From an uncultured Alphaproteobacteria bacterium (GTDB taxonomy: Bacteria > Pseudomonadota > Alphaproteobacteria > HIMB59 > GCA-002718135), in NCBI GenBank assembly GCA_902577425.1, contig CACGZD010000001.1:638414-702413 (forward strand): a DNA stretch of 64,000 nucleotides, written 5' to 3'. The notes under the pieces were generated by a model that made no database searches, was not told the origin of the DNA, and worked only from the letters and a program-made list of their open reading frames with translations. Below, piece by piece: positions 17,474 to 40,891 of the stretch (position 1 is its first letter; the number at the start of each line of letters is the position of its first letter). A program made the translations under genes and the position numbers.

Positions 17474-17495
17474 TCGGAACACTTACGGACCACTT
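17474..17495. repeat. Tandem 11-bp arm-type repeat (tRNA-distal side of Arg fragment 1)
   Basis: TCGGAACACTTACGGACCACTT is 17/22 identical to the Ser-module motif TCGGCGCACATACGGCGCACTT. An inverted half (TGTTCCG) lies 17 bp upstream. Confidence 0.72.
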
Positions 17496-17557
17496 CGTAT
17501 TCAAAAATTACTTTTTACGTATCAACTTTTCTTACTATTGGTGCTAAGACAGTTGTA

Positions 17558-18718: not shown

Positions 18719-18729
18719 TTTTTTATATC

Positions 18730-18753
18730 CCAGTGCAAATTCGTAACACTTCA
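18730..18753. repeat. Orphan arm-type repeat between the HNH and YdjM-like genes
   Basis: GTGCAAATTCGTAACACTTCA (18733-53) is 18/21 identical to 19985-20005; no tRNA fragment follows it. Confidence 0.65.
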
Positions 18754-18754
18754 C

Positions 18755-19957
18755 TCAGAAATTCAAAGCAAAAATTAGATAGGGTGTGTCATAAGCTGGG
18801 CAATTAGTTACAATTTCAATTGATTTTTTTGCAAGTTTGTACTTACTAACTTCCCCATTACACATGCTTTTATTATCTTCTTTGTGATCAATTATTTTGA
18901 TTTTATTCTCTATAAAAGAAAAAACTGAATAAGTATTATGTCTAATATGAGCTGAACCTTGAGGTTGAGAGAAAGTAGAAATTAAATAATTATTTTCATT
19001 AAGTTTTAATAAAATTTCAGTATCCAATTGCTCTATCTCATTTTGCCAATCAATCTCATATATTGATTTATTAACAATATTATAAAGTTTAGACCTATCA
19101 AAGGATTTTAAGTCAATTTCTTGGTTATTGCTAAAGCAACAATCATAATTGTGAACCATATATGTTATAATTTTAGGATCAAAATTATTAATAGTTATGT
19201 TTTGGTTTGGACCAATCGTAGAATAATCTTTAAATTTTTGATAATCGTTAAATAATGTTACTCCATAATAAACGAAAAACAATACTATTAATAAAATTGA
19301 TAAATAAAAAATAAATTTAAAAAATTTGTAAACACCAGAAAAAAAACTATTTACTTTACGCTTTGCTATTTGAAGATTTTGAGTTGATTTTTCAGTGACA
19401 CTACTCAACTTTGGGAAATAGCTAAATATTTTTTTTTCACCAAAATAATCTACTGTTAATACTGCTATTGGTATCATTCGTATATCTTCTCCTTTAAGAA
19501 AGTATAAAAGAATACATATTCCCGCAGTAAGGTAGAAGTGATATGGATAAAACGAAAAACTATTTTCTTTAATTATTTTTAAGCAAAAATAACCACACGC
19601 TATTACATTTGCAAATATCCAAATAGGACTAAGCGGACCTATCCAACCAATAAATGGAACGCTGATTAAAGCATAACCTTTCCATGATTTGGGAAACAGA
19701 TCTGCAGATAGGTGGACCATAAATGCGAAATATATTGCAGCAATAATTAAAGGATATTGTTTTGAAGAGTATTTTTTTGAATAATAATCAATTAAAAAAG
19801 GTATAAAAATGCTGTGTGTTACAATTGAGCGATGAAGTAATAATTTTCCTGTAGCTAAATCCCAATCAGGTATACTTACAGTTACTAGTGCAATAAAAAA
19901 GAAAAATATACTTGAGCCAGTTTTTTTACCAAAGTTCTTTTCTAAATACTCAATCAT
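18755..19957 (-). CDS. YdjM-like membrane metal-dependent hydrolase with a C-terminal soluble domain
   Basis: IPDWD, HRSIVTHS and HLSADL motifs in a multi-TM N-terminal half, then a basic linker, one TM helix and a hydrophilic C-terminus. Confidence 0.65.
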   Translation of the reverse strand: MIEYLEKNFGKKTGSSIFFFFIALVTVSIPDWDLATGKLLLHRSIVTHSIFIPFLIDYYSKKYSSKQYPLIIAAIYFAFMVHLSADLFPKSWKGYALISVPFIGWIGPLSPIWIFANVIACGYFCLKIIKENSFSFYPYHFYLTAGICILLYFLKGEDIRMIPIAVLTVDYFGEKKIFSYFPKLSSVTEKSTQNLQIAKRKVNSFFSGVYKFFKFIFYLSILLIVLFFVYYGVTLFNDYQKFKDYSTIGPNQNITINNFDPKIITYMVHNYDCCFSNNQEIDLKSFDRSKLYNIVNKSIYEIDWQNEIEQLDTEILLKLNENNYLISTFSQPQGSAHIRHNTYSVFSFIENKIKIIDHKEDNKSMCNGEVSKYKLAKKSIEIVTNCPAYDTPYLIFALNF

Positions 19958-19981
19958 TTTATAAACTTATAACTAAACTTT

Positions 19982-20005
19982 GTGGTGCAAATTTGGAACA
20001 CTACA
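19982..20005. repeat. Tandem 11-bp arm-type repeat (upstream of Arg fragment 2)
   Basis: TGGTGCAAATT-TGGAACACTAC shows an 11-bp period. The second CAC (19999) is 86 bp before the anticodon loop at 20085. Confidence 0.68.
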
Positions 20006-20084
20006 GAATCATTTTTTTTCACTTAACGAATGATTTTTCCCGTAATTCCGTATATGTAATACAATCTGGTGCACGGGACACGGA

Positions 20085-20129
20085 CTACGGATCTGGAGGT
20101 TAGGAATTCGACTCTTCTCGGGCGCGCCA
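20085..20129 (+). pseudogene. 3' half of tRNA-Arg(ACG) (att-like fragment 2), decaying
   Basis: Same as 17383-17427 except that G53 is changed to A (AGGAA-TTCG), breaking the invariant G53-C61 pair; no 5' half. Confidence 0.9.
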
Positions 20130-20175
20130 TATAAACTGTCAAAAACTTAATTTTAAAAAATTATTAATTAAAAAA

Positions 20176-20197
20176 AAGTGTGCCGTTTGTGCACTTT
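20176..20197. repeat. Arm-type repeat after Arg fragment 2 (largely inverted)
   Basis: The reverse complement of 20176-94 is GTGCACAAACGGCACACTT, 16/19 identical to GCGCACATACGGCGCACTT. The following ~35 bp resemble those after 17495. Confidence 0.68.
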
Positions 20198-20243
20198 CGT
20201 ATTTAGAAATACTATTTTGGATTCAACATTCCTCTTAGAAGAA

Positions 20244-20990
20244 TTATTTTATTTTTTTATTAAAAACCACAGGCATTTTGCCTTTCCACTGAATCCAAAG
20301 GTTAGGTTGTTCAATGCACTCACACATAAAATGAGCGACGTTTGCTCGCGTAGTAGTAAGTCCATTAAAAATAGTTTGAGGAGGTGTCGTTACTACTTCA
20401 TAGTTCGAAATTTCAGCATTAATGAGTCCGTCTGGTCGGACCACTACCCATTCAATAAATTCATTTTCTGAACCAATGTTATCTCTCAAAAAAGCAGCGG
20501 AGGCTTCATTATCATAATGTGGTGGTATGAGGTTGCGTAACAGAGATAAAATAACTTTTTCGCTCGTGGTTACTCTCTCACCAGGATTGCGATTACCTAC
20601 GGTGTTCATTAATAAAAATTTTGTTTTATCTAGAGAATGAGTAGCCTTAATAGCTACACATAGACGTTTGACTGCTTCCAGAACAAGCGTTCTGGGTTTG
20701 CCAAATATTCCTTTAAAACTCATTGTGTGACCTAAGCAGGAAGCCACAGCAGCACAACCTTTTACGGCTTCCAACATTTGTTCGTCACTCAGATCAAGCA
20801 AACTTGCTTTTATGATTTTAAGCTTTGGATTTTCAAGAAGTTCTTGTGGAAATTTATCGAGTGACCGAACAATAATTCGAAGGTTATAGCCGCGGACAAG
20901 AAGCTGTTTTACAAGAGGGAAACCAGTATTTCCTGTGGCTCCAACCACTAAAACTGTTTTAAAATTTGAATTGGTTTTTTCGGTTGTCAT
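20244..20990 (-). CDS. NAD(P)H-binding atypical SDR (BVR-B/flavin reductase-like)
   Basis: VLVVGATGNTG, VASCLG, WVVVRPDGL and TTRANVAHFM motifs. Confidence 0.85.
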   Translation of the reverse strand: MTTEKTNSNFKTVLVVGATGNTGFPLVKQLLVRGYNLRIIVRSLDKFPQELLENPKLKIIKASLLDLSDEQMLEAVKGCAAVASCLGHTMSFKGIFGKPRTLVLEAVKRLCVAIKATHSLDKTKFLLMNTVGNRNPGERVTTSEKVILSLLRNLIPPHYDNEASAAFLRDNIGSENEFIEWVVVRPDGLINAEISNYEVVTTPPQTIFNGLTTTRANVAHFMCECIEQPNLWIQWKGKMPVVFNKKIK

Positions 20991-28705: not shown

Positions 28706-28795
28706 GGAGAGATGTGAGAGCGGTTTAATCAGCACGCTTGGAAAGCGTGTATAGTGGAAACACTATCGAGGGTTCGAATCCCTCTCTCTCCGCCA
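28706..28795 (+). tRNA. tRNA-Ser(GGA), intact, 90 nt
   Basis: Acceptor GGAGAGA/TCTCTCC, D stem TGA/TCA, anticodon arm CACGC-TTGGAAA-GCGTG, long variable arm TAGTG-GAAA-CACTA, T arm GAGGG-TTCGAAT-CCCTC, and encoded GCCA. Confidence 0.96.
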
Positions 28796-28839
28796 TAAAT
28801 TAGGATTTTCCTTTAACGATTTTTCAACAAAAAAGTGTT

Positions 28840-28861
28840 TCGACGCACATACGGCGCACTT
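28840..28861. repeat. Tandem 11-bp arm-type repeat, GGCG type
   Basis: TCGACGCACATACGGCGCACTT is 21/22 identical to 30760-81; the second CAC is 62 bp after the tRNA CCA. Confidence 0.85.
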
Positions 28862-28899
28862 ACGAGCCTATTTTTCATCTTAATCCCGTATCGGTATTG

Positions 28900-28918
28900 T
28901 GGTAGGATAATCGTGATG
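28900..28918 (+). promoter_or_regulatory. Putative extended -10 promoter with leaderless start
   Basis: TG-G-TAGGAT-N7-ATG, 18/19 identical to 43015-43033; no Shine-Dalgarno sequence. Confidence 0.5.
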
Positions 28919-29344
28919 AAAAAATTATTTTTTTTAATAGCTTTATTATTTTTGTTTTCTTCATACGCTAACGCTAAAGTGGTAAAACTTTTATGTGAGC
29001 CAAGAGAATACTACATTTATGATCACAATCAATCATCTGGAACTTATACTAAGCGTTTTGAACCTAATATTTTGGATTTAATTATTTCCATAAGTGAAAA
29101 AAAATTAACCATGTATTATGATGATGCAGAAGATAGTTTTAGTAGAACAAAAATTAATGCCGACCCAACATCATTTCTTATGAAATTTCAGAATGAAAAA
29201 TATGGAGTAGTGGTTGGCTTTCTTTTTCATAGAAAATCAGGAAGATTAAATAAGTTTAAAAGTGGAGGTCAATATGGAGGTGATAATAATATTTTTTCTG
29301 AGACATATTATAATTGTGAAAAATATTTAGAGCCCGTTTTTTAA
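28916..29344 (+). CDS. Secreted hypothetical protein
   Basis: ATG 28916 begins a clear signal peptide, MKKLFFLIALLFLFSSYANA. The track's upstream GTG start would run through the arm repeat. Confidence 0.7.
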   Translation: MKKLFFLIALLFLFSSYANAKVVKLLCEPREYYIYDHNQSSGTYTKRFEPNILDLIISISEKKLTMYYDDAEDSFSRTKINADPTSFLMKFQNEKYGVVVGFLFHRKSGRLNKFKSGGQYGGDNNIFSETYYNCEKYLEPVF

Positions 29345-29351
29345 AAATTAT

Positions 29352-29981
29352 ATGACCAATAAAGTTAAATTAAAATATGACTATATAATGAAATTAGAAT
29401 ACGTTGGTGAAGTCAAGGACGGCTTGCCCCATGGATATGGTACTTTCAATATATATGGAGAATTATCATTTAAAGAATTAAGTAAGACACAAAATTATAA
29501 AGAAACAAAGAAGGGTGAATACGAATATTTATCTCATCATAAATCTACCACACATTATCTTCAGGCACTTATAGAGGTGTCTTTAACAAAAAGTAAGCCA
29601 AAGGATTTTGATAAAGATTGTTTGGAAATTTCTATTAAAGGGGGCTTTAAAGAAGGTCTTTGGGAGGGACGTTTTTTTAGGATTGATTATGATTTTTTAA
29701 ATGGAAAAGAAAGTGACAATGAAGAAACTGAAGATTTTGAAGTATATTCTGAAGCATCGATTTTTGAAAATAATATTATGGTTGAAGGAAGAATAGATTT
29801 TGATGATGGTTATTATTTTGGTGAAGTCATATTGAATGAATCCTATAATAAAGATTTTGAAAAAGCCACTGGAGATCTTTATTTACCTCATGGAGAAGGT
29901 GATTACATTTATCATGATCCGAATAAAGGCAAATGGTTTAGAGGAATTTGGGAAAATGGAAAATTAAAAAAAACAAATTAA
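29352..29981 (+). CDS. Acidic protein with MORN-like repeats
   Basis: YVGEVKDGLPHGYGTF, YFGEV...PHGEGDY and WFRGIWENGK motifs. Confidence 0.65.
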   Translation: MTNKVKLKYDYIMKLEYVGEVKDGLPHGYGTFNIYGELSFKELSKTQNYKETKKGEYEYLSHHKSTTHYLQALIEVSLTKSKPKDFDKDCLEISIKGGFKEGLWEGRFFRIDYDFLNGKESDNEETEDFEVYSEASIFENNIMVEGRIDFDDGYYFGEVILNESYNKDFEKATGDLYLPHGEGDYIYHDPNKGKWFRGIWENGKLKKTN

Positions 29982-30542
29982 ATGACTAAAAAAGAAAAAA
30001 TAAAAACAAAGGATTGGACTTACAATGGTGAGGTTAAAAATGGGGAACCTCATGGAGATGGAATAATGAAATTTAAAAATGGAGAAAAGTTAGAGGGTTG
30101 TTGGAAAAATGGTAACCCTATAAAAGCATATAAATATATTCTTTATTCAAATGAAAAAAAAGATATGAGATATGAATACGAAGGTACGTTAGGTTGGGGA
30201 AAAGGCGGCGTATTAAATGGAAAAGGAATTTTTAAAATTATAGATAAAGTTTCAAAACCCAAAGGTTATACTTATCTAAAAGGAAACTTTGTAGGAGCCT
30301 TATTGGAAGGCAAGGGAATAAGAATTTTGTATTATGATAAAAACTATAGCCGAGCAATAAATCTTTACAAAGGTGAATTCAAGAACGGTTTTCAACATGG
30401 AAAAGGTATAGAGTGGTTTTACCCAAATAAATATTTCTCTGAAGGAATATTTAAAAATAATAAATTTAAAGGTTCAAAACAAAAACCACTTACAAAAAAG
30501 GTTTTTAAATTAATATTAGATGCAAATAATATTAACAAATAA
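29982..30542 (+). CDS. Basic MORN-repeat protein
   Basis: YNGEVKNGEPHGDGIM, LEGCWKNG, YEGT..NGKGIF and YKGEFKNGFQHGKGI motifs; TAAATG-coupled to the upstream gene. Confidence 0.75.
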   Translation: MTKKEKIKTKDWTYNGEVKNGEPHGDGIMKFKNGEKLEGCWKNGNPIKAYKYILYSNEKKDMRYEYEGTLGWGKGGVLNGKGIFKIIDKVSKPKGYTYLKGNFVGALLEGKGIRILYYDKNYSRAINLYKGEFKNGFQHGKGIEWFYPNKYFSEGIFKNNKFKGSKQKPLTKKVFKLILDANNINK

Positions 30543-30563
30543 CTAAAACAAATGAAATAATTC

Positions 30564-30643
30564 TTGTCTCACATATGTCTCACTCGCGCACCCGGTATTT
30601 ACATTTTTACGTTTAATTTTTCCTAGAAACCTTACACTTTGTA
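30564..30643. repeat. Right-end arm of Ser module 1: GTCT-type tandem repeat plus a conserved ~60-bp spacer
   Basis: TTGTCTCACATATGTCTCACTC followed by CACCCGGTATTTACATTTTTACGTTTAATTTTTCCTAGAAACC..., near-identical at 42761-42840 and 43798-43877. Confidence 0.85.
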
Positions 30644-30715
30644 TTTAATCAGCACGCTTGGAAAGCGTGTATAGTAGCAATACTATCGAGGGTTCGAATC
30701 CCTCTCTCTCCGCCA
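30644..30715 (+). pseudogene. 72-bp 3' copy of tRNA-Ser(GGA), from the D-loop to CCA
   Basis: Starts at TTTAATCAGC with no 5' acceptor strand. The variable arm is TAGTA-GCAA-TACTA, a compensatory variant. Confidence 0.92.
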
Positions 30716-30759
30716 TAAATTAAGATTTCTCTTTAAAGATTTTTTAACAAAAAAGTGTT

Positions 30760-30781
30760 TCGGCGCACATACGGCGCACTT
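30760..30781. repeat. Tandem 11-bp arm-type repeat, GGCG type
   Basis: TCGGCGCACATACGGCGCACTT, identical to 42761-82; the second CAC is 62 bp after CCA. Confidence 0.88.
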
Positions 30782-30825
30782 ACACATTCTTTTTCATCTT
30801 TGAAAAGTATGTTATTTATATTTTC

Positions 30826-30849
30826 TTAATTGGTTTTTTCGGGTGTCAT
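30826..30849 (-). pseudogene. 7-codon stub (MTPEKTN*) matching the start of the 20244-20990 gene
   Basis: 30828-30852 is 24/25 identical to 20969-20993, which encodes MTTEKTN. Confidence 0.5.
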
Positions 30850-30862
30850 TTATGGTTATCTT

Positions 30863-32185
30863 CTAGTTTTTAATTTTTTTTGCTGCTTTTGCATATTCTA
30901 TATTTCTTCCGCCATAACGTCTTAGACGTATGTTGCATTGTTCGGCATGACCAAGAAAACCTTCTAAATATGAAAGTCTAGAGCCATACTCACCTATTAA
31001 GGTCGCAGCTTCATCTGTTAAAACTTTTTGATATGTGTGTGTTTTGATAAATTTACCCACCCATAATCCGCCAGTATAACGTCCGGCTTTTTTAGTAGGT
31101 AGGGTATGGTTTGTTCCAATCACTTTGTCACCATTTGCAACATTGGTTCTTGGGCCAAGAAATAATGCACCGTAAGATTTCATATTTTCCAAAAACCAAT
31201 CATCTTTTTTTGTCATCACTTGCACATGTTCCGAGGCAATTTCATTTGCTTTATCAAGCATTTCTTCGTACGAATCACAAAGTATAACTGCACCGTAATC
31301 TCTCCAACTTATACTTGCTGTTTCTTTAGTTGGTAAAATTTGAAGAATTCTTTCAATCTCTAATAGAGTAGACTCTGCTAAATTTTTTGAATTTGTAATT
31401 AGAACTGCGGGTGAATTATATCCATGTTCAGCTTGCCCTAAAAGATCAGTAGCACATAATTCTCCATCTACAGTATTATCTGCAATAACCATTGTTTCCG
31501 TTGGGCCAGCAAATAAATCAATCCCCACTTTTCCAAATAATTGTCTTTTAGCTTCAGCAACATAAGCGTTACCAGGACCAACAAGCATATCAACTGGTTT
31601 TATTGTTTCAGTTCCTATTGCCATTGCACCTATACCTTGCATACCACCTAATACATATATCTCATGGGCTCCACCTAAATGCATAGCCGCAATTACTGCT
31701 GGATTAGGTTTGCTTTGAAATGGAGATGTAGTAGCTACTATTCTAGGGACATCTGCAACAGATGCTGTTACTACAGACATGTGTGCGGATGCTACCATAG
31801 GAAATTTTCCTGCAGGAACATAACAGCCAACTGATTGTACTGGAATATTTTTGTGACCTAATATCACTCCAGGTAGTGTTTCAACTTCTAATTCCTTTAA
31901 TGTTGCAAGTTGTGCTTCTGCAAATTGTCTTATTTGTTTTTGCGCAAATTTGATGTCCTCAATGTCATCTTCAGATACCTTACTAATTAAATTTTGAATC
32001 TCGGAATCTGTTAACCTAAAACTTGTTGGGGAATAATTATCAAATTTCTCTGACAATTCTCTAACATATTGGTCACCTTGTTGTTCTATTTTTTTTAATG
32101 TTTCTTCAACAATGTTTTTAACTTTATCATTCTCAGCTGATCGTTCTTGTTCAGCAATTCCTTTTTTCAAATATTGAATAGTCAT
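30863..32185 (-). CDS. HisD-family dehydrogenase, sulfopropanediol 3-dehydrogenase (HpsN)-like
   Basis: VGCYVPAGK, GPGNAYVAEAKR, AGPTE, DLLGQAEH, SEH and GTNHTLP motifs. The MTIQYLKKG N-terminus and GRYTGGLWVGKF are HpsN-clade-like; there are no his genes nearby. Confidence 0.75.
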   Translation of the reverse strand: MTIQYLKKGIAEQERSAENDKVKNIVEETLKKIEQQGDQYVRELSEKFDNYSPTSFRLTDSEIQNLISKVSEDDIEDIKFAQKQIRQFAEAQLATLKELEVETLPGVILGHKNIPVQSVGCYVPAGKFPMVASAHMSVVTASVADVPRIVATTSPFQSKPNPAVIAAMHLGGAHEIYVLGGMQGIGAMAIGTETIKPVDMLVGPGNAYVAEAKRQLFGKVGIDLFAGPTETMVIADNTVDGELCATDLLGQAEHGYNSPAVLITNSKNLAESTLLEIERILQILPTKETASISWRDYGAVILCDSYEEMLDKANEIASEHVQVMTKKDDWFLENMKSYGALFLGPRTNVANGDKVIGTNHTLPTKKAGRYTGGLWVGKFIKTHTYQKVLTDEAATLIGEYGSRLSYLEGFLGHAEQCNIRLRRYGGRNIEYAKAAKKIKN

Positions 32186-32188
32186 AAG

Positions 32189-33283
32189 TTATTTTTTATG
32201 TATTAAATCAAATATATCAACGTCTATCTGGTTAAGTATGTGTGCAATATCAATGGGCACCCAGTTTTCTCTTATTAATCCTTCGTGATGTAAATAAAAA
32301 TCCATAACTCTCATTGTTACTGATTTGCCTGTGCCTTCATATCCAAGCCATTCTTTTGAACCATGCTTACACTCTATGCTGTGCCAACCTGATGTCATCG
32401 AAAAATTGCCATCTGCAATTTCAATATAGTGTCCTATTTTCCAATAGTCTCTTTCCTTAAATGTTAGTCGAAATGGTAATTGATGATGATCAACATATCC
32501 TTTTAGTCCTCTTGCAGTACCTATACCACTAGGACCATACCACATCATTTTAGGATGCCAGAAATCTTTTTGTGCATGATTTAATAATTTCTCTCTTATA
32601 TATTCATAATTAGATCCAGGATCAGTTTCAGGTTTGATGTTTAAACTTCTTTGCATTGTTAAAGCTTGCTCCATAGATTTAATTGATAATTCATTATCCA
32701 TATTTTCAAATGTTGTACCATCACCGGTTATTGGTCCTGGCCACATACCTTCCGCGCCTAGAGATTTATTTACTGGCCAAAATCCAGCCTGACGAATAAA
32801 ATCTAAAGTATCAATTAAAATGTGAGATTGAATAATTTTATTATCTTTGATTTCATGCGCTTCACATATTCTAAGATGAATTGTTTTGGCATGAGCAGGA
32901 ACATTAAGCCATGGATTTACAAAAGTCCCTGTTAAATGAGCTACTGTAGAAACAAAAATTTTATCTTGAAAAGATCCTCCAAGAATTAGATTATCCCTTC
33001 TTTCAAGATCAGGAAATGCACTTATAAGTGGTTTCCATAATTTTTCTGTTATTTTAGAAATTCCTTTTAAGTCATTAAGTGGATGGAATGCTCTTATTAC
33101 CGCATCATCATGATACGCATCACTAATATTTTTATTAATATTTTCTAAATTGGATTCAGCTATATTTTTTAGAAGAATTCTAATTTTTTTTTTATTTGCT
33201 AAATTTATCTTTGGATCTAAATTAATGACTTCAGTACTTCCCTCTTTTTTTATTCCAGTATTAAAATTTTCAATGTTTGTCAT
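32189..33283 (-). CDS. Tandem SnoaL-like / ester cyclase (NTF2-fold) protein
   Basis: FPDLERRD, WYGPSGIGTARG and RVMDFY...IRENWV motifs; paralogous to 40892-41965. Confidence 0.75.
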   Translation of the reverse strand: MTNIENFNTGIKKEGSTEVINLDPKINLANKKKIRILLKNIAESNLENINKNISDAYHDDAVIRAFHPLNDLKGISKITEKLWKPLISAFPDLERRDNLILGGSFQDKIFVSTVAHLTGTFVNPWLNVPAHAKTIHLRICEAHEIKDNKIIQSHILIDTLDFIRQAGFWPVNKSLGAEGMWPGPITGDGTTFENMDNELSIKSMEQALTMQRSLNIKPETDPGSNYEYIREKLLNHAQKDFWHPKMMWYGPSGIGTARGLKGYVDHHQLPFRLTFKERDYWKIGHYIEIADGNFSMTSGWHSIECKHGSKEWLGYEGTGKSVTMRVMDFYLHHEGLIRENWVPIDIAHILNQIDVDIFDLIHKK

Positions 33284-33332
33284 AATTATTTAAATTTTAG
33301 TTACTCACAATTAGGCAAATTTTAAATTGATT

Positions 33333-33370
33333 TATTCAATATTTTGAATATTATTCATTAAAAATGAATA
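33333..33370. promoter_or_regulatory. Candidate operator array in a divergent promoter
   Basis: TATTCA/TGAATA half-sites at 33333, 33345, 33352 and 33365, including the palindrome TGAATA-T-TATTCA; a similar array lies at 37526-37563. Confidence 0.4.
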
Positions 33371-33389
33371 AAATATAATTTTTCCTAAA

Positions 33390-34358
33390 ATGTCAATAGA
33401 TATAGAAAAACGTCTAGCAAGATTTAATGATCTTATTCCCAGTAAGATCCCTTTTGTAGAAGGTAAGTTAAAAGGTCATCAGGATAGAAAAAATTATTCA
33501 ATTGTCGGACCAGGGGTAAGTGAAGATTCTAAGCAAAATGTAAAAATTGCTGAAGCTCACGGATTTAATATCGGGGCTGTAAGTGCTGCCCCAATGAATG
33601 GTTCAGGATTGCATAGTCATACAACTGCCGAGGTGTTTATTATACATGCTGGTTCATGGCGTTTTTATTGGGGAGTAAATGGCGAAGAGGGCGAAGTAAT
33701 TCTTAGCAAAGGAGATGTAGCATCATTTCCTACTAATATGTTTAGAGGATTTCAAAATGTTAGTGATGAAGAAGCCCTTATGTTTGTTGCGCTAGGTGAA
33801 GATGATCCAGGTGTTATTACGTGGACTCCAAGATTATTGAAAGAAGCAAATGAATCAGGAATGTTATTAATGGAAGATCGTTCATTGGTTGATCTTAATA
33901 AGCAAAAAGTGCCTGAGGGTAAGTTAGTAACAAAACCTCTTGAAGATAAGGAACTGGAAAGCTTTGACCATTATACCTCAGATGAAATTGAGAAATTTGT
34001 TATTCGTTATAATGATAATAAAAATTATGTTGATGATGAACATTATAATTCAAATTCAATAATTAATTATTTAGATTCATTTGAAATACATGGAAAAAAA
34101 ATTGAACCTAAAATTCCTCACAAAACAGGCTTTGGATTGACTCTATTAAAAGGTGTTTCAGCCCATATGCATGCGTATTCTATTAATTCATCTGAAGTTT
34201 ATAATTGTTTAAATGGCAAGTGGGAAGTCACATGTAATGATGAGAAAGTTATTCTCGAACCACGTGATAGTTTCTCTGCTCCAAAGAATTCTACAAGAAG
34301 TGTAAAACAGATAAGCAATGATGAGGGTAGTTTATTTATCGTTAGGCAATCAAATTAA
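33390..34358 (+). CDS. Bicupin-domain protein
   Basis: GSGLHSHTTAEVFIIHAGSWRF cupin motif 1, GDVASFPTNMFRGF motif 2, and a second degenerate cupin domain. Confidence 0.8.
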   Translation: MSIDIEKRLARFNDLIPSKIPFVEGKLKGHQDRKNYSIVGPGVSEDSKQNVKIAEAHGFNIGAVSAAPMNGSGLHSHTTAEVFIIHAGSWRFYWGVNGEEGEVILSKGDVASFPTNMFRGFQNVSDEEALMFVALGEDDPGVITWTPRLLKEANESGMLLMEDRSLVDLNKQKVPEGKLVTKPLEDKELESFDHYTSDEIEKFVIRYNDNKNYVDDEHYNSNSIINYLDSFEIHGKKIEPKIPHKTGFGLTLLKGVSAHMHAYSINSSEVYNCLNGKWEVTCNDEKVILEPRDSFSAPKNSTRSVKQISNDEGSLFIVRQSN

Positions 34359-34370
34359 TTTATTAAAAAT

Positions 34371-35342
34371 ATGAAGGGTTTTGATAAAAAATTTAAAGAT
34401 CTGCCTGATTATATTCTTAAGATTACCTATCAGATTTGGGAGGATAAAGATGTTGAGTCAATTAGGGAGTATTATGCAAAGGGAATTCCGGTAAGATCTC
34501 CTGATGGAGTTATCTACGGACCTGATAAAGTAGTAAAAGCAACTTATGCTACGCTTGACGAATTTCCAGATCGGCAACTTCTTGGAGAGGATGTTATTTT
34601 TATAGGTAATGAAAATGATGGTTATTTATCTTCGCATCGTATTTTAACAAAAGCGACTCATCTAAATGATGGAGTTTACGGAAAAGCCACAGGAATTAAA
34701 ATATCTTACAGAGTTATAGCAGATTGTGCTTGTAAAAATAATCAAGTTTATGATGAATGGTTGGTTAGAGATCAGGGAGCAATAGTCAGACAGTTAAATT
34801 TAGATCCAAAAACCTATGCTAAAACATTAATTGATAAGCAAGGCGGTGTAACAAAATGCTCTATACCTTTTAATCAAAATACACCTCTAGATTTAAAATA
34901 TACCCAGTTAAGTTTGCCTAAAAATAACACTGGTTATGAATATGCTGAAATATTAAAAACTATATTTCAAAAGGATTTGGATAGTATTGAAAAATTTTAT
35001 GACAGATCTATTAATCAAGAACAACCTAGTGGTCTTAAAGCGTATGGAGTAGACGAGGTTAAATCTTTTTGGTCATCAATTTTTTCTTCCTTTCCTGAAG
35101 CGACATTTAAAATTGAACATGTCAGTTATCTGGATGAGCCTGCAGCATATAGAAAAGCAGCGATAAGATGGTCTTTAAATGGTATCCACTCTGGTCCTGG
35201 GTATTTTGGCAATCCTAGTCAAACAGAAGTTTATGTAATGGGAATTTCTCATGCAGAATTTGGTCCCAGAGGTATAAAAAATGAGTGGGTTTTATTTGAT
35301 GAAACTGCAATATGGAAACAAATTTTAATGAAAACTGGTTAA
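34371..35342 (+). CDS. Tandem SnoaL-like / ester cyclase protein
   Basis: TLDEFPDRQLLGEDVI, DEWLVRDQGAI, SFPEATFKIEH, RWSL.G.HSG.G.FG and EWVLFDE motifs. Confidence 0.75.
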   Translation: MKGFDKKFKDLPDYILKITYQIWEDKDVESIREYYAKGIPVRSPDGVIYGPDKVVKATYATLDEFPDRQLLGEDVIFIGNENDGYLSSHRILTKATHLNDGVYGKATGIKISYRVIADCACKNNQVYDEWLVRDQGAIVRQLNLDPKTYAKTLIDKQGGVTKCSIPFNQNTPLDLKYTQLSLPKNNTGYEYAEILKTIFQKDLDSIEKFYDRSINQEQPSGLKAYGVDEVKSFWSSIFSSFPEATFKIEHVSYLDEPAAYRKAAIRWSLNGIHSGPGYFGNPSQTEVYVMGISHAEFGPRGIKNEWVLFDETAIWKQILMKTG

Positions 35343-35355
35343 GGATAGATAAACA

Positions 35356-36486
35356 TTGAATACGAAAATTTTAACAACCCATGTTGGAAGTTTACCACGT
35401 TCAAAAACATTATCTGAATTTCTTTTTGCTAAAGATAAGGGAGAAAGTTTTAATTTAAATGAGTTTGATGAAGTAGTATCTCAAAATGTGCATGAAATTG
35501 TAAAAAAACAATTAGATATTGGTATTGATTTTATCAGTGATGGGGAAATGAGTAAAATCAGTTATGCTACCTATGTCAAAGAGAGAATAAATGGCTTTTC
35601 TGGAGAAAGTGAAAGAAGAGCTCCTGCTGATTTGGATGCATTTCCCGAATATAAAGAAAAAATTGCCAAAAGTGGTGGAACGCCTACTTATACCCGTCCC
35701 TGTTGTACTGGAGAGCTGTCACTTAAAAAAAATAGTGACCTTTTAAAAGATATAAATAATTTTACATCTGCTCTTAAATCAAACAACCATAAAAACGGCT
35801 TTATGAACTCTGCTTCACCAGGGGTTATAAATGTTTTTTTACCAAACAAATATTATAAAAATGATGATGAGTATCTTGAAAAACTATCTTCAATAATGTC
35901 TGATGAATATGAAACAATTACATCAAAAAATTTATATTTACAAATTGATTGTCCTGATTTGGCTTTAGCTAGGCATATGAATTTCAAAGATATGGATGAA
36001 AAAAGTTTTTTACATCGCGCTGAAAAACAAATTGAAGCTCTCAATGCTTCTCTCGCAGCAGTTCCACAGGATCAAATTAGAATTCATATTTGCTGGGGTA
36101 ATTATGAAGGGCCTCATACTTTTGATGTTGCTTTGGAAAAAATTTTACCAATTGTTCTAAAAGCTAAAACTAAATACCTGTTAATTGAGTCTTCAAATCC
36201 AAGACATGCTCATGAATGGAAGGTGTTTGAGAATATTAAATTACCAAAAGATAAAGTTATTGTTCCAGGGGTTATTGATTCGACATCAAATTTTGTTGAA
36301 CATCCTGAAGTTGTTTCAGATCGACTTAGACAATTTGCAAGTGTTGTTCCAAAAGATCAGATTATGGCAGGTACAGATTGTGGTTTTAGTACATTTGCTG
36401 GATTTGGAAAAGTTGACGAGAAAATTTGTTATGAAAAATTAGGCTCCCTAGTTAAAGGTGCTAAAATAGCCTCAAATATAATTTGA
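35356..36486 (+). CDS. Cobalamin-independent methionine synthase II family / epoxyalkane:CoM transferase-like Zn enzyme
   Basis: TTHVGSLPR, SDGE, QIDCPDL, HICWGNY, IE..NPRH and TDCGF motifs (Zn ligands H-x-C...E...C); single barrel. Confidence 0.85.
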   Translation: MNTKILTTHVGSLPRSKTLSEFLFAKDKGESFNLNEFDEVVSQNVHEIVKKQLDIGIDFISDGEMSKISYATYVKERINGFSGESERRAPADLDAFPEYKEKIAKSGGTPTYTRPCCTGELSLKKNSDLLKDINNFTSALKSNNHKNGFMNSASPGVINVFLPNKYYKNDDEYLEKLSSIMSDEYETITSKNLYLQIDCPDLALARHMNFKDMDEKSFLHRAEKQIEALNASLAAVPQDQIRIHICWGNYEGPHTFDVALEKILPIVLKAKTKYLLIESSNPRHAHEWKVFENIKLPKDKVIVPGVIDSTSNFVEHPEVVSDRLRQFASVVPKDQIMAGTDCGFSTFAGFGKVDEKICYEKLGSLVKGAKIASNII

Positions 36487-36499
36487 ATTGTTAATTTTT

Positions 36500-37501
36500 T
36501 TATCTAGTTGTATTTCGATAAATAAATTTGCCCTGTATTACATGATTAACAGGCTCAAATTCTGGATCCTTTATATTATCATCTATAATTTGGGTAACAA
36601 GCTTTGACATTTGTCTAATAGGTTGTCTAATTGTTGTTAAATTATATGAATACCAATTTGCTGTTGATATGTCATCATATCCAATTACCTCTATTTCTTT
36701 TGGGATATTTAATTTTGTATTTTCTTTAATATAATCAATGCAACCAAAAGCCATAGTATCGTCAGCACAAAACAATGCTGTAATATTTTTTTTTAAAAGT
36801 TTTTTTGCTGACTCGAAACCTCCTTCATATGTAAAATTTCCTTTTTCATGAAAAAATTTAATTTTGTTTAAATTTTTAAAATGGTTTTTAAAACCTTTAC
36901 ATCTTTCATTACTTACAAAGGATCCAGTTGGTCCTTCAACCATTCCTATATTAATATGTCCATTGGTAATGAAATGTTCTGCCGCTGCTTCTCCCCCATA
37001 TCTGTGATCACAAGCTACAGAACTCAATGTGGGTATTTTCCAATTTCTATTAAAAGCGATAAGTTGAATTTGTTTGGATAAACAATTTTCTACAAATGCA
37101 TCCGTAGGCTTTGTAGCCGAAACAATCGCAACTAATCTCTCTTTTAGGTAAGGTTGAATTAAGTTGTTATCAAGTTCTTCACCATCATCGGTTGTAATTA
37201 AAAGTATCCTGTACCCACTCATTCGAAGAGCCTCATGTAATTCAGTTAGGACTTCAGGATAATATCTATTGGTGATATAGGGTAATATTACGCCCACTAG
37301 CCCACCATCCACTGATGAAGAAAAAGAATGCTGAATAGTTTGATGTTTATAGCCCAATTTTTTAGCAGCTTCGATGACGCGTAATTTTGTCCGATTTGAG
37401 ATACTGGCTCCTTTGGTGAAGCACCGAGAGACTGCTGACTGGGATACACCAGCTAATGTGGCCACATTCTGGGATGTTGGATTCTTTAATTTAGTTTTCA
37501 T
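36500..37501 (-). CDS. LacI-family transcriptional regulator
   Basis: VATLAGVSQSAVSR HTH, followed by a periplasmic-binding-fold domain (ALFCADD, VIGYDD, LTTIRQP). Confidence 0.9.
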   Translation of the reverse strand: MKTKLKNPTSQNVATLAGVSQSAVSRCFTKGASISNRTKLRVIEAAKKLGYKHQTIQHSFSSSVDGGLVGVILPYITNRYYPEVLTELHEALRMSGYRILLITTDDGEELDNNLIQPYLKERLVAIVSATKPTDAFVENCLSKQIQLIAFNRNWKIPTLSSVACDHRYGGEAAAEHFITNGHINIGMVEGPTGSFVSNERCKGFKNHFKNLNKIKFFHEKGNFTYEGGFESAKKLLKKNITALFCADDTMAFGCIDYIKENTKLNIPKEIEVIGYDDISTANWYSYNLTTIRQPIRQMSKLVTQIIDDNIKDPEFEPVNHVIQGKFIYRNTTR

Positions 37502-37525
37502 TTATGCCTTTATCCACCGAAATAT

Positions 37526-37563
37526 TATTCATTACATTGCATATTTATTCAAAACAATGCAAT
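37526..37563. promoter_or_regulatory. Candidate operator array between lacI and the SBP gene
   Basis: TATTCA (37526), TGCATA (37538), TATTCA (37546) and TGCAAT (37558); spacing parallels 33333-33370. Confidence 0.4.
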
Positions 37564-37641
37564 ATATTTATTATAAATATTTATAATATTAATTCTCTTA
37601 ATATAACAATTTATTTTAAGGGTAATTAATAAGGAGGAAAA

Positions 37642-38883
37642 ATGTTATTTAAAAAACTAATATTAGTTGGATTTATTTCCCTATTTTTCAGCTCATCTTT
37701 GTATGCAGCTGATTGTGGACCGAATGGGCAATCAATCCGAATTCTAGCAAGTGATTTTCCAGCAATTCACGCAATAGCAAATTCTGCTGAAAGTAATTGT
37801 GCAGGATCTGCTTCTGAATTCAATCGAAATCATACTACCGAAGCACGTCAAATAATGAATGCTGCTCAAACACCAAATCCAGCAGAGTATACTTCAGTTA
37901 TTGTAGCTAACTCTACCCTAGTTCAATTAATGAACGATGGACTTGTTAGACCATTAGATGATTTAGTTGAAAAATATGGTGGTCACTTAAAATCTAACCA
38001 ACTGATAACTATTGATGGAAAAATAATGGCAATAGCGTTTATGGCAAATTCTCAGCACATGTATTATAGAACAGATATTTTAGAAAAATCTGGGGTTGAT
38101 GGAATACCAGCAACTTATGATGAAGTAATATCTGCTGCTGAAAAGATACGTGCAGCTGGTATCATGGAGCATCCACTTGTAATGAATCTCAAAGTCGGAT
38201 GGAATGTTGGTGAAGTATTTAACACTATATACCTAGCACATGGTGGAGAATTCTTTAAGCCTGGTAGTGCTGAAGCATCTATTAATAATGCCAAAGGTGT
38301 TGCTGCTCTAGAAACAATGAAAGCTCTTGTAGAGTATGCTCACCCTGATCATTTAACGCAGGCATCTGATGATACGCAAGGATTATGGGAAGCTGGTCAA
38401 GCGGCAATTGGCTTTATGTGGGGTTCTCGTGGAGGAGTTATACTAGATAATGAAGGTTCTTCAGCTGAAGTGACTTCAAATACTGTTTTATCTGCAGCTC
38501 CAACTGTTACTGGTGGCTCAATACCAGGAGCAACTCTATGGTGGGATGGAATAACTATAGCTACTAACGTGTCTGACAGTGAAGCAGAAGCAACGTTTGC
38601 AGCACTTGTAAGTGGTATGACTTCAGAAATGGTTGCTGCTAATAATGATGATGCAATTTGGTTAATTGATGGTTTTAAACCTGGTCCAGCTGCAGCAGGA
38701 GTTTCTGCAACTGCTCAAGGCGGTGCTAAATCTTACCCGATGTTTGCTCAAATGGGATTATTGCACAATGCATTAGGTGCAGAGCTAGTTGATTTTTTAA
38801 AGGGATCTGAGAGCGCTGAACAAGCACTTAGTGATGTAGAGGCTGTTTACGAAACAGCTGCTAAAGACGCAGGTTATCTGTAG
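37642..38883 (+). CDS. Carbohydrate ABC transporter substrate-binding protein (family 1)
   Basis: Signal peptide, YYRTDILEKSG.D.IPATYDE motif, and AAGGAGG RBS. Confidence 0.88.
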   Translation: MLFKKLILVGFISLFFSSSLYAADCGPNGQSIRILASDFPAIHAIANSAESNCAGSASEFNRNHTTEARQIMNAAQTPNPAEYTSVIVANSTLVQLMNDGLVRPLDDLVEKYGGHLKSNQLITIDGKIMAIAFMANSQHMYYRTDILEKSGVDGIPATYDEVISAAEKIRAAGIMEHPLVMNLKVGWNVGEVFNTIYLAHGGEFFKPGSAEASINNAKGVAALETMKALVEYAHPDHLTQASDDTQGLWEAGQAAIGFMWGSRGGVILDNEGSSAEVTSNTVLSAAPTVTGGSIPGATLWWDGITIATNVSDSEAEATFAALVSGMTSEMVAANNDDAIWLIDGFKPGPAAAGVSATAQGGAKSYPMFAQMGLLHNALGAELVDFLKGSESAEQALSDVEAVYETAAKDAGYL

Positions 38884-38905
38884 TCAATATAAATAAATCA
38901 GTAAA

Positions 38906-38933
38906 AAGGGGTTTTCAAATTTGAAAACCCCTT
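38906..38933 (+). terminator. Perfect 28-bp palindrome after the SBP gene (hairpin)
   Basis: AAGGGGTTTTCAAATTTGAAAACCCCTT equals its own reverse complement. Confidence 0.7.
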
Positions 38934-38963
38934 GTATCTTTCTATGTAATTTAAAATCGCATA

Positions 38964-39998
38964 ATGAAGCACAGCACATTCTTATTATTTTCTCTTCCTT
39001 CATTAAGTGTAATGTTTTTATTTATTGCAATACCTATAGTTTCTGTTTTTATTCAATCTCTGCATATTGAGCATAAACAAGTAATAATTGTTACAGAAAA
39101 TTGTGATCCTTTTGGATGTGAGACAACAACAGCTGTGGATACTGAAGCTTCCGCAAAGTTAAAAGAAAAAGCACCTCTTGGTAAATTTAATGGATTTAAA
39201 ACATATTCAAACAGAATGCATTTTGCATTTGATGAAGTAGGAGAAGCTTGGAAGAGCTCGGATAGTTTTACAGTTTTTACTAAAAAATTATATAATTACC
39301 CCCTATATAGAGCGCTCAGTTTCACTCTTACTTACACCTTCGTAGTTACTCCTTTTGTCTTATTTCTTGGTTTTTTAGTTGCCGTTGGAGTTAATAATCT
39401 TCCAAAGATGTTTAAAGGTCCAACAATTTTTGCATCTCTTCTTCCAATGATAGTTACACCTCTTGTTGGTTCATTGATACTTTTCTGGATGGTTGACGGT
39501 GATGGTGTGATTGGGGCTACACTCCAAAAAATATTTAATGATAATTCTCTTAGCTTGAAAGCATCACCTGTGCTTACCTGGATTATGTTGATGGTATACG
39601 GTATTTGGCATTTGATGCCTTTTAGTTTTATTGTTTTTTATGCAGGTCTTCAAACGGTTCCTCAAGAAACAATAGAGGCGGCAACAATAGATGGCGCATC
39701 AAAATTTCAAAGAATACGCCATGTTGTTATTCCTCATTTAATGCCACTTGCTATTTTCATCACTTTAATACTTTTGATGGATAATTTTAGAGTTTTTGAA
39801 CCAATCATAGGTTTTAGAGCAGAAGCGCACGCCACCTCAATATCGTGGTTAATATGGAATCATTTGCGAGAAAGTGCTTACCCTCTCTATAACGCCGCAG
39901 GTGCTACATCTATGGTTACTATTTTTGGTGTAGCAATTTTACTCTTGCCCGTACTAATTCGAACATGGCGAGATTTTAAAGAAAAAAATAAAGGTTAG
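38964..39998 (+). CDS. Carbohydrate ABC transporter permease (MalF-like)
   Basis: EAATIDGASKFQRIRHV EAA motif; multiple TM segments. Confidence 0.9.
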   Translation: MKHSTFLLFSLPSLSVMFLFIAIPIVSVFIQSLHIEHKQVIIVTENCDPFGCETTTAVDTEASAKLKEKAPLGKFNGFKTYSNRMHFAFDEVGEAWKSSDSFTVFTKKLYNYPLYRALSFTLTYTFVVTPFVLFLGFLVAVGVNNLPKMFKGPTIFASLLPMIVTPLVGSLILFWMVDGDGVIGATLQKIFNDNSLSLKASPVLTWIMLMVYGIWHLMPFSFIVFYAGLQTVPQETIEAATIDGASKFQRIRHVVIPHLMPLAIFITLILLMDNFRVFEPIIGFRAEAHATSISWLIWNHLRESAYPLYNAAGATSMVTIFGVAILLLPVLIRTWRDFKEKNKG

Positions 39999-40004
39999 GA
40001 ATTT

Positions 40005-40886
40005 GTGAATACAAAAATTGAAAATAAATTAACCCCAGTTCGTATTATTGCTTTTATATTTGTGGCTCTGTGGTTGGTTATTGCTATGTTTCCTTTTATT
40101 TGGACATTGTGGGGATCTTTCAAAGTACAAGCTGATTTTTTTTCAAAAGCTGATTGGTTAAATGCAATATTTGGCTTTCATACTGAAAAACAAACAGGCG
40201 GTTTTTTTACTATGGATGGATATTATGGCTCTTGGATTGAAGAAGAATTTTGGCGTGCCGTTATTAATACAAGCATAGTAGTATTTTTTACAGTTTTAAT
40301 TTCTCTTACTTTTGGAACTTTAGGTGGTTATGCTCTTGCAAGGTCTACTTATCGCTACGCCTTCTGGATTTTAATGGCAGGTCTTATCTTTCGTGCGATG
40401 CCTCATATGACTTTGATTTCAGGATATCTTCAACCTTTTTTTGCATGGAATGTTTGGGGAATTTTGCCTACAACAATAATTGTGCTTGTTGCAATTAATC
40501 AGCCTTTTACTCTGTGGATGCTACATTCATTTTTTTTAAACATACCAAAAGATTTAGATGAAAGCGCTATGTGCGATGGTTGTAATAGATTTCAAGCATT
40601 TAGATATGTGATCATTCCTATAATGTGGCCAGGGGTAATCACTACTGGATTATTTAGCTTCCTTCTTGCTTACAATGATTTTACAGTTACATCCATGTTG
40701 CTTTCAGATGAAAATGAAACAATGATTCCAGCAATTGCAAGTTTTCTAGGTACTGTCCAAGAAGAAGGTAAAGTAATGTATGCTGTAGCAGCCGTTGTTT
40801 CAGCAACTGCTCCATTATTCTTTTTTGTACTGTTTTTTCAAAGACAGATTGTTAGTGGATTAACAGCTGGAGCAGTAAAAGGTTAA
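40005..40886 (+). CDS. Carbohydrate ABC transporter permease (MalG-like)
   Basis: IPKDLDESAMCDGC EAA motif and FQRQIVSGLTAGAVKG C-terminus; GTG start. Confidence 0.9.
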   Translation: MNTKIENKLTPVRIIAFIFVALWLVIAMFPFIWTLWGSFKVQADFFSKADWLNAIFGFHTEKQTGGFFTMDGYYGSWIEEEFWRAVINTSIVVFFTVLISLTFGTLGGYALARSTYRYAFWILMAGLIFRAMPHMTLISGYLQPFFAWNVWGILPTTIIVLVAINQPFTLWMLHSFFLNIPKDLDESAMCDGCNRFQAFRYVIIPIMWPGVITTGLFSFLLAYNDFTVTSMLLSDENETMIPAIASFLGTVQEEGKVMYAVAAVVSATAPLFFFVLFFQRQIVSGLTAGAVKG

Positions 40887-40891
40887 AAGTA

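Follow-up and report, generated by a model that had tools for sequence, protein, structure and literature searches.

How do two genes for unrelated proteins come to be preceded by the same 19 nucleotides (nt), and what does this shared gene start deliver to them? The question arises in a 64,000-nt stretch of DNA from an uncultured marine alphaproteobacterium (contig CACGZD010000001.1, positions 638,414 to 702,413), analysed at its full length and referred to below as the window. The 19-mer TGGTAGGATAATYGTGATG is found at 28900–28918 and 43015–43033, with 18/19 positions identical and one base differing, and in each copy the final ATG is the start codon of an open reading frame (ORF): 28916–29344 (142 amino acids, aa; protein A) and 43031–43792 (253 aa; protein C). 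A search of the 64 kilobases (kb) allowing up to three mismatches returned these two copies only, with a chance expectation of 0.06. An earlier interpretation made from the letters alone (the sequence-only reading) had described both copies at these positions, and had proposed that the end of a mobile element supplies an extended −10 promoter, a leaderless ATG and a signal-peptide-like leader to captured domains, in analogy to the Pc promoter of integrons. Our comparison supports one half of this proposal and not the other. The 19-mer is most likely the TGn/−10/discriminator/ATG block of a leaderless promoter that lies in the conserved tRNA-side end of a cassette. We hold it to be fairly probable, from sequence comparison, that the locus as a whole is a cassette array with promoter-bearing arms, signal peptides owned by the cargo genes, and mobilisation in trans.

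Cassette ends behind a tRNA-Ser gene

The two 19-mers are not independent occurrences: both lie inside homologous cassette ends of about 120 nt, which can be aligned from the 3′ end of a transfer RNA (tRNA) sequence to the ATG. The array to which these ends belong is anchored at an intact tRNA-Ser(GGA) gene, the sole tRNA detected in the window by ARAGORN and Rfam (Table 1). A repeat finder returned four copies of a unit of about 228 nt. In copies 2–4 the tRNA 3′ part is present as a 72-nt stretch reaching from the D-loop to CCA; the 88 nt or so before it are common to these three copies, and in them CAC-type repeats are followed by CCCGGTATTTACATTTT.ACGTTTAATTTTTCCTAGAAAC (the right or P arm, with GTTTAATTTTTCCTAGAAAC). 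Copies 1–3 share about 70–120 nt on the 3′ side of the tRNA part (the left or P′ arm). The motif CAC[AT]TA-N5-CAC occurs seven times in the window, always on the plus strand and always in the arms of the Ser cassettes or in the arm of a tRNA-Arg module described below, and we infer that the CAC-type repeats are recombinase arm sites.

Because copies of the tRNA 3′ part recur together with shared P and P′ arms, the repeat units bear the signature of three elements (cassettes A, B and C) that site-specific recombination in the tRNA has placed in tandem. As in other tRNA-integrating elements, direct repeats of the tRNA 3′ part flank the units and an intact tRNA stands at one end; the arms come without an integrase, as no integrase domain was found in the long ORFs scanned in the window, nor in A, B or C. 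Beyond copy 4 the DNA is unrelated, very rich in AT and without left-end homology, so the array stops at the last tRNA-Ser fragment, at 43949. Cassette B carries the identical 23-mer arm repeat CGGCGCACATACGGCGCACTTA at both ends. The neighbouring arms on either side, which belong to A (right arm) and C (left arm), share the GTCTCAC type. Such a match of the B ends to each other, and of the flanking arms to one another, is as expected if B, with its own arms, had been inserted as a unit into an older A/C junction. In other marine contigs the same tRNA is followed by a different first cassette.

The tRNA-Ser(GGA) has an atypical D-arm, GGAGAGATGTGAGAGCGGTTTAATCA (28706–28731), with the distinctive stretch GAGATGTGAGAGCGGTTTAATCAGCACGC. 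In our genome and metagenome scans, the tRNA-Ser(GGA) of AT-rich loci, two records titled Pelagibacteraceae among them, has the standard D-arm GGAGAGGTGGCCGAGTGGTTGAAGGC; several of the other AT-rich loci have an apparent gyrB next door. Since the element-borne fragments begin inside the atypical D-loop, part of the odd D-arm may come from the element. An Rfam search of the left ends and of the predicted 5′ ends returned no family above threshold, and folding showed nothing unusual in either.

The promoter reading of the 19-mer

We collected additional left ends from contigs that encode an identical ABC permease 5′ of the tRNA and from contigs with cargo homologues (contigs are cited by L-numbers). 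Nine left ends were aligned and 13 gene-start units were tabulated, of which the window supplied three and L001, L002, L010, L257 and L269 the other ten. The left ends follow one order: CCA, about 47 nt, two arm repeats, TTTTGATCAACATT, a variable spacer, (A/G)TG-n-TA..AT-(A/T)AT, 3–4 nt and ATG. From CCA to ATG, the Ser units that were measured span about 117–120 nt and the Arg unit 130 nt. Immediately 3′ of the ATG the alignment collapses, and the first genes are unrelated.

Within the gene-start units, TGn directly precedes the hexamer and the start codon is ATG in 13/13. The hexamer reads TA..AT in 11/13, the others being TAAGCT and, in the Arg unit, TAAGAC, and the form TAnnnT holds for 12/13. 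TCAACA, a 4/6 match to TTGACA, stands exactly 17 nt upstream in eight units, and TCAACT or TCTACA takes its place in two more. The hexamer variants (TAGGAT, TAAGAT, TAGAAT, TAATAT and TAAAAT) differ at those positions that a −10 box tolerates, and one and the same cargo can stand behind different versions: C follows TGG-TAGGAT in the window and TGA-TAGAAT in L257, and the gene for a PhyH protein follows TAAGAT, TAAAAT or TAGGAT depending on the contig. We favour an extended −10 element with a leaderless ATG because the promoter-critical positions are kept across units whose first genes are unrelated. In published work, a Pribnow box located some 10 nt 5′ of the start codon is the signature of bacterial leaderless genes (PMC6028130). 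The comparison therefore supports the extended −10 and the leaderless ATG of the sequence-only reading, and also the similar Arg-module start that it had pointed to, present as TGC-TAAGAC-AGTTGTA-ATG at 17542–17560; its 7-nt spacing applies to ten units, the other three having 6 nt.

The composite motif TCAAC[AT]-N14-TGNTANNA[TC]-N6-7-ATG has two matches in the window, in the Arg cassette and in C, and none in 60 Markov simulations. In its full form it is found in the window at cassette starts only; its loose components show no overall enrichment there. TGnTAnnnT placed 5–8 nt before an ATG occurs at one other ORF start in the window (56544, minus strand). RNA folding gave no stable structure for the predicted 5′ ends.

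The same letters could be read as mainly a ribosome-binding region, with AGGA as the Shine-Dalgarno (SD) sequence and the promoter further upstream, in the tRNA, the arm or the upstream cassette. In both window copies AGGA does lie within TAGGAT, 8 nt 5′ of the ATG; strongly expressed window genes, such as those for the solute-binding proteins at 25722 and 37642, use a clear GGAGG, and no terminators were found between the cassettes. However, apart from the two window copies AGGA is found in one L257 unit and in none of the other ten. The related hexamers TAAGAT, TAATAT, TAAAAT and TAGAAT have lost the Gs, with TA at positions 1–2, AT at positions 5–6 and the upstream TG retained, and the 17-nt distance to TCAACA is conserved as well. 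Since the Gs vary while TA..AT and TG stay, the hexamer is better explained as a −10 box than as an SD sequence, and a mainly ribosome-binding role appears highly unlikely. The statement of the sequence-only reading that there is no SD sequence suits most of the related units (TAAGAT, TAATAT, TAAAAT) but is not strictly true of the two window copies.

A second alternative is that the block is the site of a recombination or regulatory protein, be it an arm site, an accessory-factor site or an operator, or that an operator overlaps the promoter. The location of the block inside an att (attachment) arm, beside clear arm-type repeats, is in keeping with such a role, as are the extension of conservation beyond a minimal −10 box to GATAAT and the sequence TTGATCAA, a perfect palindrome present in five units. 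The palindrome is nevertheless missing in L010, L269, L002c and the Arg unit, in which only TCAACA/T is kept. Moreover, the unit also stands at gene starts without a tRNA piece or arm repeats (L257 1142 and 1979, L002 7359, and L269), the −10-to-ATG spacing is kept in L001b although the arm repeats are deleted, and the fixed distance is the one to the ATG and not the one to the core. We consider a protein site unlikely.

Finally, the block may have no specific function, the A and C ends being recent products of duplication or gene conversion and the juxtaposition with ATG a matter of descent. The entire left ends are homologous, and the orthologous C cassette of L257 has GTGATAGAATAAT where the two copies within this genome are 18/19 identical, which suggests within-genome homogenisation. 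Descent alone does not account for the contrast between the −35/−10 spacers of A and C, which differ strongly, and their −10/ATG blocks, which are nearly identical; nor for substitutions across contigs that spare exactly the promoter-critical positions. In addition, the PhyH orthologue of the window (about 90% identical, 46534–47328), which is situated behind other genes, has a −10 box decayed to CTAGAT. A functionless block thus seems quite unlikely to us.

According to the promoter reading, the left arm would consist of two CAC-type repeats and then, in most cassettes, a sigma-70-type promoter with −35 TCAACA, a 17-nt spacer ending in TGn, −10 TA(A/G)(G/A)AT and 6–7 nt to the ATG. Transcription would start at the ATG or within about 3 nt of it, and a leaderless mRNA would serve to express the first cargo gene, independently of neighbouring sequence. 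A promoter copy would travel with each cassette, with no shared platform promoter.

Several observations weigh against this reading. Cassette A has a poor −35 (TTAATC), and the final T that is otherwise conserved is missing from the Arg −10, TAAGAC. A two-hexamer promoter scan did not call the sites, although it produced as many matches in shuffled sequence and is uninformative at 30% GC. The 13 units are phylogenetically non-independent: PhyH orthologues account for three of them, and orthologues of C and of A for two each. The two window copies could instead have a short leader and a weak SD sequence, the AGGA 8 nt from the ATG. PhyH may be a conserved flank gene, and the promoter-ATG unit may reflect a way of starting genes that is typical of the clade and not a property of the cassette end as such, because it also precedes att-less genes and PhyH.

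The units outside cassettes and the cassettes without units show where the limits lie. Cassette B and the second Arg left end (20176–20240) keep the arm repeats and have no forward gene or promoter block behind them; junction unit 2, at the start of B, has no forward promoter-ATG, and the first B gene is on the minus strand. In L002 and L257, a promoter-ATG unit without tRNA piece or arm repeats directly follows the PhyH stop codon, and in L269 a homologue of A (40% identical) starts with TCAACA-17-TGTTAAGAT-7-ATG without an att piece. A further unit lies 5′ of PhyH in L257, where a 38-codon ORF runs into the promoter. This ORF (L257 1040–1156) encodes a signal peptide plus 18 residues, has its own TGA-TAAGCT-7-ATG and runs into the PhyH −10; it may have been left behind when cargo was swapped at the promoter block, or it may encode a genuine small secreted peptide. 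The analogy to an integron Pc promoter is therefore loose, since there is a promoter per cassette, two ends have no forward gene, and att-less units exist in L257, L002 and L269. By these comparisons, the design appears to be a recurrent gene-start module of the flexible regions of the clade, which the cassette left arms carry.

Table 1. Coordinates in the window of the tRNA-Ser cassette array and of the tRNA-Arg module
Feature	Position	Strand	Content or basis
Intact tRNA-Ser(GGA), array anchor	28706–28795	+	ARAGORN; Rfam tRNA 53 bits
Cassette A	28796–30643		three genes, 1.9 kb
Left (tRNA-proximal, P′) end of A	28796–28915	+	alignment of four repeat units and nine left ends
A left-end direct repeats, arm-type	28843–28863	+	GACGCAC-ATA-CGGCGCAC
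A promoter parts	28880–85; 28900–02; 28903–08; 28909–15	+	−35-like TTAATC; TGG; −10 TAGGAT; discriminator AATCGTG
19-mer, copy 1	28900–28918	+	TGGTAGGATAATCGTGATG
A gene 1	28916–29344	+	142-aa secreted protein, predicted all-beta; predicted leaderless start 28916
A genes 2 and 3	29352–30542	+	209 aa and 186 aa; Pfam
Junction unit 2	30556–30800	+	
Junction unit 2, right (P) arm of A	30556–30643		GTCTCAC repeats
Junction unit 2, tRNA-Ser 3′ fragment	30644–30715		72 nt
Cassette B	30716–42840		about ten metabolic/transport genes, 12 kb
Junction unit 2, repeats in left arm of B	30760–82		CGGCGCAC-ATA-CGGCGCAC
Junction unit 3	42753–43030	+	
Junction unit 3, P arm of B	42753–42840		
Junction unit 3, tRNA-Ser fragment	42841–42912		
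Cassette C	42913–43877		one gene, 1 kb
Junction unit 3, repeats in left end of C	42960–79		GTCTCAC-ATA-GGTCTCAC
C promoter parts	42995–43000; 43015–17; 43018–23; 43024–30	+	−35 TCAACA; TGG; −10 TAGGAT; discriminator AATTGTG
19-mer, copy 2	43015–43033	+	TGGTAGGATAATTGTGATG
C gene	43031–43792	+	253-aa secreted protein; single gene; predicted leaderless start 43031
Junction unit 4	43790–43949	+	P arm of C, GGTAGCAC-ATA-GGTTGCAC, and last tRNA-Ser fragment (43878–43949)
tRNA-Arg(ACG) sister architecture, left side	17383–17557	+	
First tRNA-Arg 3′ fragment	17383–17427		
Arg arm repeats	near 17475–95		CGGAACAC-TTA-CGGACCAC
Arg promoter parts	17522–27; 17545–50; 17558	+	−35 TCAACT; TGC and −10 TAAGAC, 7 nt; ATG
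Arg cassette	17558–20129		
HNH-endonuclease-domain protein	17558–18718	+	no signal peptide; Pfam, PHROGs
400-aa membrane protein	18755–19957	−	
Second tRNA-Arg fragment	20085–20129		

Cargo genes and their signal peptides

Proteins A and C start with MKKLFFLIALLFLFSSYANAK and MSKLLLFFVLVFYSFSNSYAK, respectively, each with a 21-residue signal-peptide-like segment, and BLASTP found no similarity between their mature parts. Both observations agree with the sequence-only reading, which went on to propose that the element provides the promoter, the ATG and a common signal-peptide leader fused in frame to captured domains. The two leaders do resemble each other: both are 21 aa long, both end in A before K, and 8/21 residues are identical, which places the pair in the top 6% of 126 unrelated signal-peptide pairs. 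At the nucleotide level, A and C are 95% identical over the 19-mer, 60% over codons 2–21 and 24–37% further downstream, and codon shuffles reach 39% over codons 2–21. However, the value of 60% equals that of A against an unrelated secreted gene, L257c (0.60), and is inside the range of short signal peptides in these islands (0.42–0.62). We read the likeness of the A and C signal peptides as shared composition plus the n-h-c layout in an AT-rich genome.

What becomes of the signal peptide when the cassette context is absent, and of the gene start when the signal peptide is absent, speaks more directly to ownership. Homologues of C with 72–73% identity, located in ordinary contexts without a tRNA piece, keep a homologous signal peptide (MKYILFTVFLVFYTFVNLSAKPPY and MKFISILLFLVFYSFMDVYAKPPY, compared to MSKLLLFFVLVFYSFSNSYAKPPY in the window). 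In L252 and L253, the gene for one of them (P0019) overlaps an AsnC-type regulator gene at its stop codon, again without a tRNA piece, and P0024 in L251 is another homologue outside cassettes; the C signal peptide is thus retained in att-less operons. In other phyla, the homologues come with signal peptides, lipoboxes or type IX secretion system (T9SS) tails of their own. Conversely, the promoter-ATG unit also precedes proteins that lack a signal peptide, namely PhyH (L001, L002 and L257), the HNH protein of the Arg cassette and a membrane protein in L010, so the expectation that genes 3′ of the motif would share a conserved signal peptide is not borne out.

Because identity falls at the ATG, C homologues keep the signal peptide outside cassettes, and PhyH and HNH proteins follow the same start without one, the signal peptide is not part of the cassette end. 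It belongs instead to the individual cargo gene. The cargo consists of whole genes and operons, encoding complete proteins of known families, rather than captured domains. The model of a full export platform is already largely refuted by these data, and we regard it as extremely unlikely. What stands of the sequence-only interpretation is the promoter with a leaderless ATG in a conserved end; the supply of signal peptides, the captured domains and the integron analogy do not.

The C family is large and widespread, with 1857 matches at E ≤ 0.001, including Caldithrix, Pirellulales and Opitutia. It has an invariant HExxH as well as GGGN and PNR motifs, and conservation starts at PP(Y/F)xGT, directly after the signal peptide. 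A signal peptide or lipobox of its own is present in each member inspected, and T9SS or other C-terminal extensions occur in some. No Pfam or NCBIfam match was found for C, nor a PDB sequence or fold match below E = 0.001. In the AlphaFold model, C is an alpha/beta protein with HExxH in a helix (pLDDT, the predicted local distance difference test, of 88), and C may be a new zincin-like hydrolase. The AlphaFold model of A, built from two sequences, is all-beta with a pLDDT of 74.5. The predicted folds are different and A and C are not full-length homologues, so simple common descent of the two proteins, the alternative that the sequence-only reading had named against itself, does not apply.

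A gene 1 has no Pfam, PHROG or NCBIfam match at the thresholds used. Genes 2 and 3 are probably co-transcribed with it; the 186-aa product is a MORN-repeat protein above the Pfam cutoff and the 209-aa product has a weak MORN match below that cutoff. In L269, too, the gene after the A homologue (40% identical) has a faint MORN match. Exact-protein look-ups of A gene 1, A gene 2, the C gene and the flank gene found none on record. Cassette B encodes, by Pfam, a HisD-like dehydrogenase, SnoaL-like proteins, a cupin, a MetE-like protein, a LacI regulator and an SDR (short-chain dehydrogenase/reductase), as well as an ABC solute-binding protein and two permeases, and looks like a self-contained catabolic module. 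Four of its proteins (30863–42750) have SnoaL-like domains, three of them with two matched stretches each, and no ATPase gene for the ABC importer was found.

Between the last tRNA-Ser fragment and PhyH, a very low-GC block (15–25%, 43950–46530) encodes a nucleotidyl transferase, an epimerase/dehydratase and a GT2 glycosyltransferase. The inserted block has no att repeats; in L001 and L002, PhyH is located directly 3′ of the tRNA fragment. Further along the window, a bacterial small signal recognition particle RNA (61512–61606; Rfam RF00169, 53 bits) lies 5′ of dnaX.

The tRNA-Arg(ACG) module repeats the architecture at a second site. The window has two tRNA-Arg 3′ fragments and no intact tRNA-Arg gene; the first fragment is situated directly 3′ of the lepA stop codon, and the 5′ half of the tRNA gene is missing where an intact copy would be expected. 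Following the second fragment there is a left-end-like stretch (20130–20250) with the arm repeat GTGTGCCGTTTGTGCAC and TTCAACATTCC. The gene behind it (20244–20990) runs the other way, and there is no third Arg fragment to close a cassette. The 400-aa ORF at 18755–19957 (minus strand) was considered as an integrase and rejected, as it encodes a multi-pass membrane protein with no matches in Pfam or PHROGs.

Mobilisation, related systems and implications

A candidate recombinase is encoded on L259, a 15-kb contig with a close variant of the permease and the 5′ part of the same unusual tRNA-Ser, flanked by arm repeats of the GTCAC type. Directly after the tRNA-Ser 5′ fragment is a gene for a 349-aa tyrosine recombinase. 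In the region 11600–13150 of L259, GTCAC-type repeats stand on both sides and an inverted P-arm-like sequence comes after the recombinase gene; there is no intact tRNA-Ser on the contig. The protein is of the generic phage-integrase type and scores far below the NCBIfam integron-integrase cutoffs. Its family has 200 matches at E ≤ 1e-10, with listed sources that are almost all marine metagenome; most members are on contigs of 1.2–2 kb, as if an integrase of this type were itself a repeat-bounded unit, and one is labelled Candidatus Pelagibacterales. A relative with 52% identity belongs to an element of about 7 kb with a DUF5906 primase-helicase, located between a tRNA-Gln 5′ fragment and an intact tRNA-Gln, and the contig that bears this element, L297, also has a tRNA-Arg(ACG) nearly identical to the Arg fragments of the window. 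This tRNA-Arg and the one labelled integrase relative are the grounds on which we describe the window as Pelagibacterales-like.

The window cassettes would presumably be moved in trans by a tyrosine recombinase of the L259 type. Counting against this part of our interpretation, the connection between the window and L259 consists solely of the shared tRNA sequence and similar arm repeats, and the window has no integrase; tblastn of the L259 integrase against the window gave no match. A scan of a genome collection with a tRNA-Ser T-arm/acceptor pattern recovered a pattern conserved across many phyla; among the at least 120 matches listed, two are titled Pelagibacteraceae (L022 and L062), and these have the standard D-arm and unrelated downstream sequence. 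In a metagenome scan with the anticodon arm and a 400-nt spacer, the matches listed are mostly standard-D-arm tRNA-Ser genes of other lineages, and only L232 among them has the tRNA-Ser type of the window, with a truncated left end. Scans of viral contigs gave no matches, or chance or coding ones such as WYDNGD.

Several known systems resemble the array in part. Tycheposons of Prochlorococcus are described as tandem units separated by partial tRNAs (bioRxiv 10.1101/2020.12.28.424599), and islands of SAR11 as regions where partial tRNA repeats mark the insertion of gene cassettes, with almost no integrases (PMC11796062). The window shares with these accretion systems the head-to-tail units at a tRNA gene, the partial tRNA copies between them and the streamlined marine host; its units are very small in comparison (1–12 kb, one with a single gene). 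It differs from tycheposons in that the window has neither their hallmark tyrosine recombinase nor their replication module; a related integrase accompanied by a DUF5906 primase-helicase was found in other contigs only, at tRNA-Gln. Att sites without an integrase fit the definition of CIMEs, which are cis-mobilizable, att-flanked elements lacking an integrase (PMC5704250). In term searches of the tycheposon preprint and the SAR11 paper, the word ‘promoter’ came up in neither, so that neither mentions a standard promoter or a leaderless start in the att arm.

Like an integron, the locus is an array of recombinase-less cassettes at one site, with expression via a standard promoter design. Unlike in an integron, the promoter is in each cassette end and not once in the platform, the boundaries are tRNA 3′ direct repeats with arm-type repeats and not attC hairpins, and no IntI-type integrase is adjacent in the window. 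We rejected membership in the integrons on all three features tested (IntI, attC and a single Pc). Leaderless genes with a −10 directly 5′ of the start are known from bacteria, in the GeneMarkS-2 group C genomes (PMC6028130) and in Deinococcus deserti (PMC4007540); the present units agree with them in having TAnnnT 6–7 nt before the ATG and, in most cases, no SD sequence, and appear to differ in being tied to a mobile-element arm with a conserved TG extension and −35. Phage morons and other promoter-carrying cassettes are likewise self-contained combinations of promoter and gene in a variable region, and the att-less units of L257, L002 and L269 are alike in this respect. The host here is not a phage, however, no flanking terminator was found, and the window units are bounded by att repeats.

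A broader and still doubtful idea is that Pelagibacterales-like genomes hold a cassette system that is integron-like and mechanistically distinct, in which integrase-less, gene-sized units carry a tRNA-derived att arm with a leaderless promoter, and in which this block doubles as a homology patch for swapping cargo. If this were true, a gene placed at the cassette ATG would be expressed wherever the cassette lands, and swapping at the homology patch would explain the promoter-gene units with and without att as well as the signal-peptide ORF of L257.

Bacteria of the SAR11 type dominate the surface ocean and have large flexible gene pools. To our knowledge, their genomes contain almost no recognisable mobile elements. 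The cassettes bear on how genes enter such streamlined genomes and come to be expressed there: cassettes that need neither an integrase of their own, nor an SD sequence, nor a host promoter would give a simple plug-in route to gene expression. The conserved succession of P arm, tRNA fragment and P′ arm provides a sequence handle with which such cassettes can be catalogued in metagenomes.

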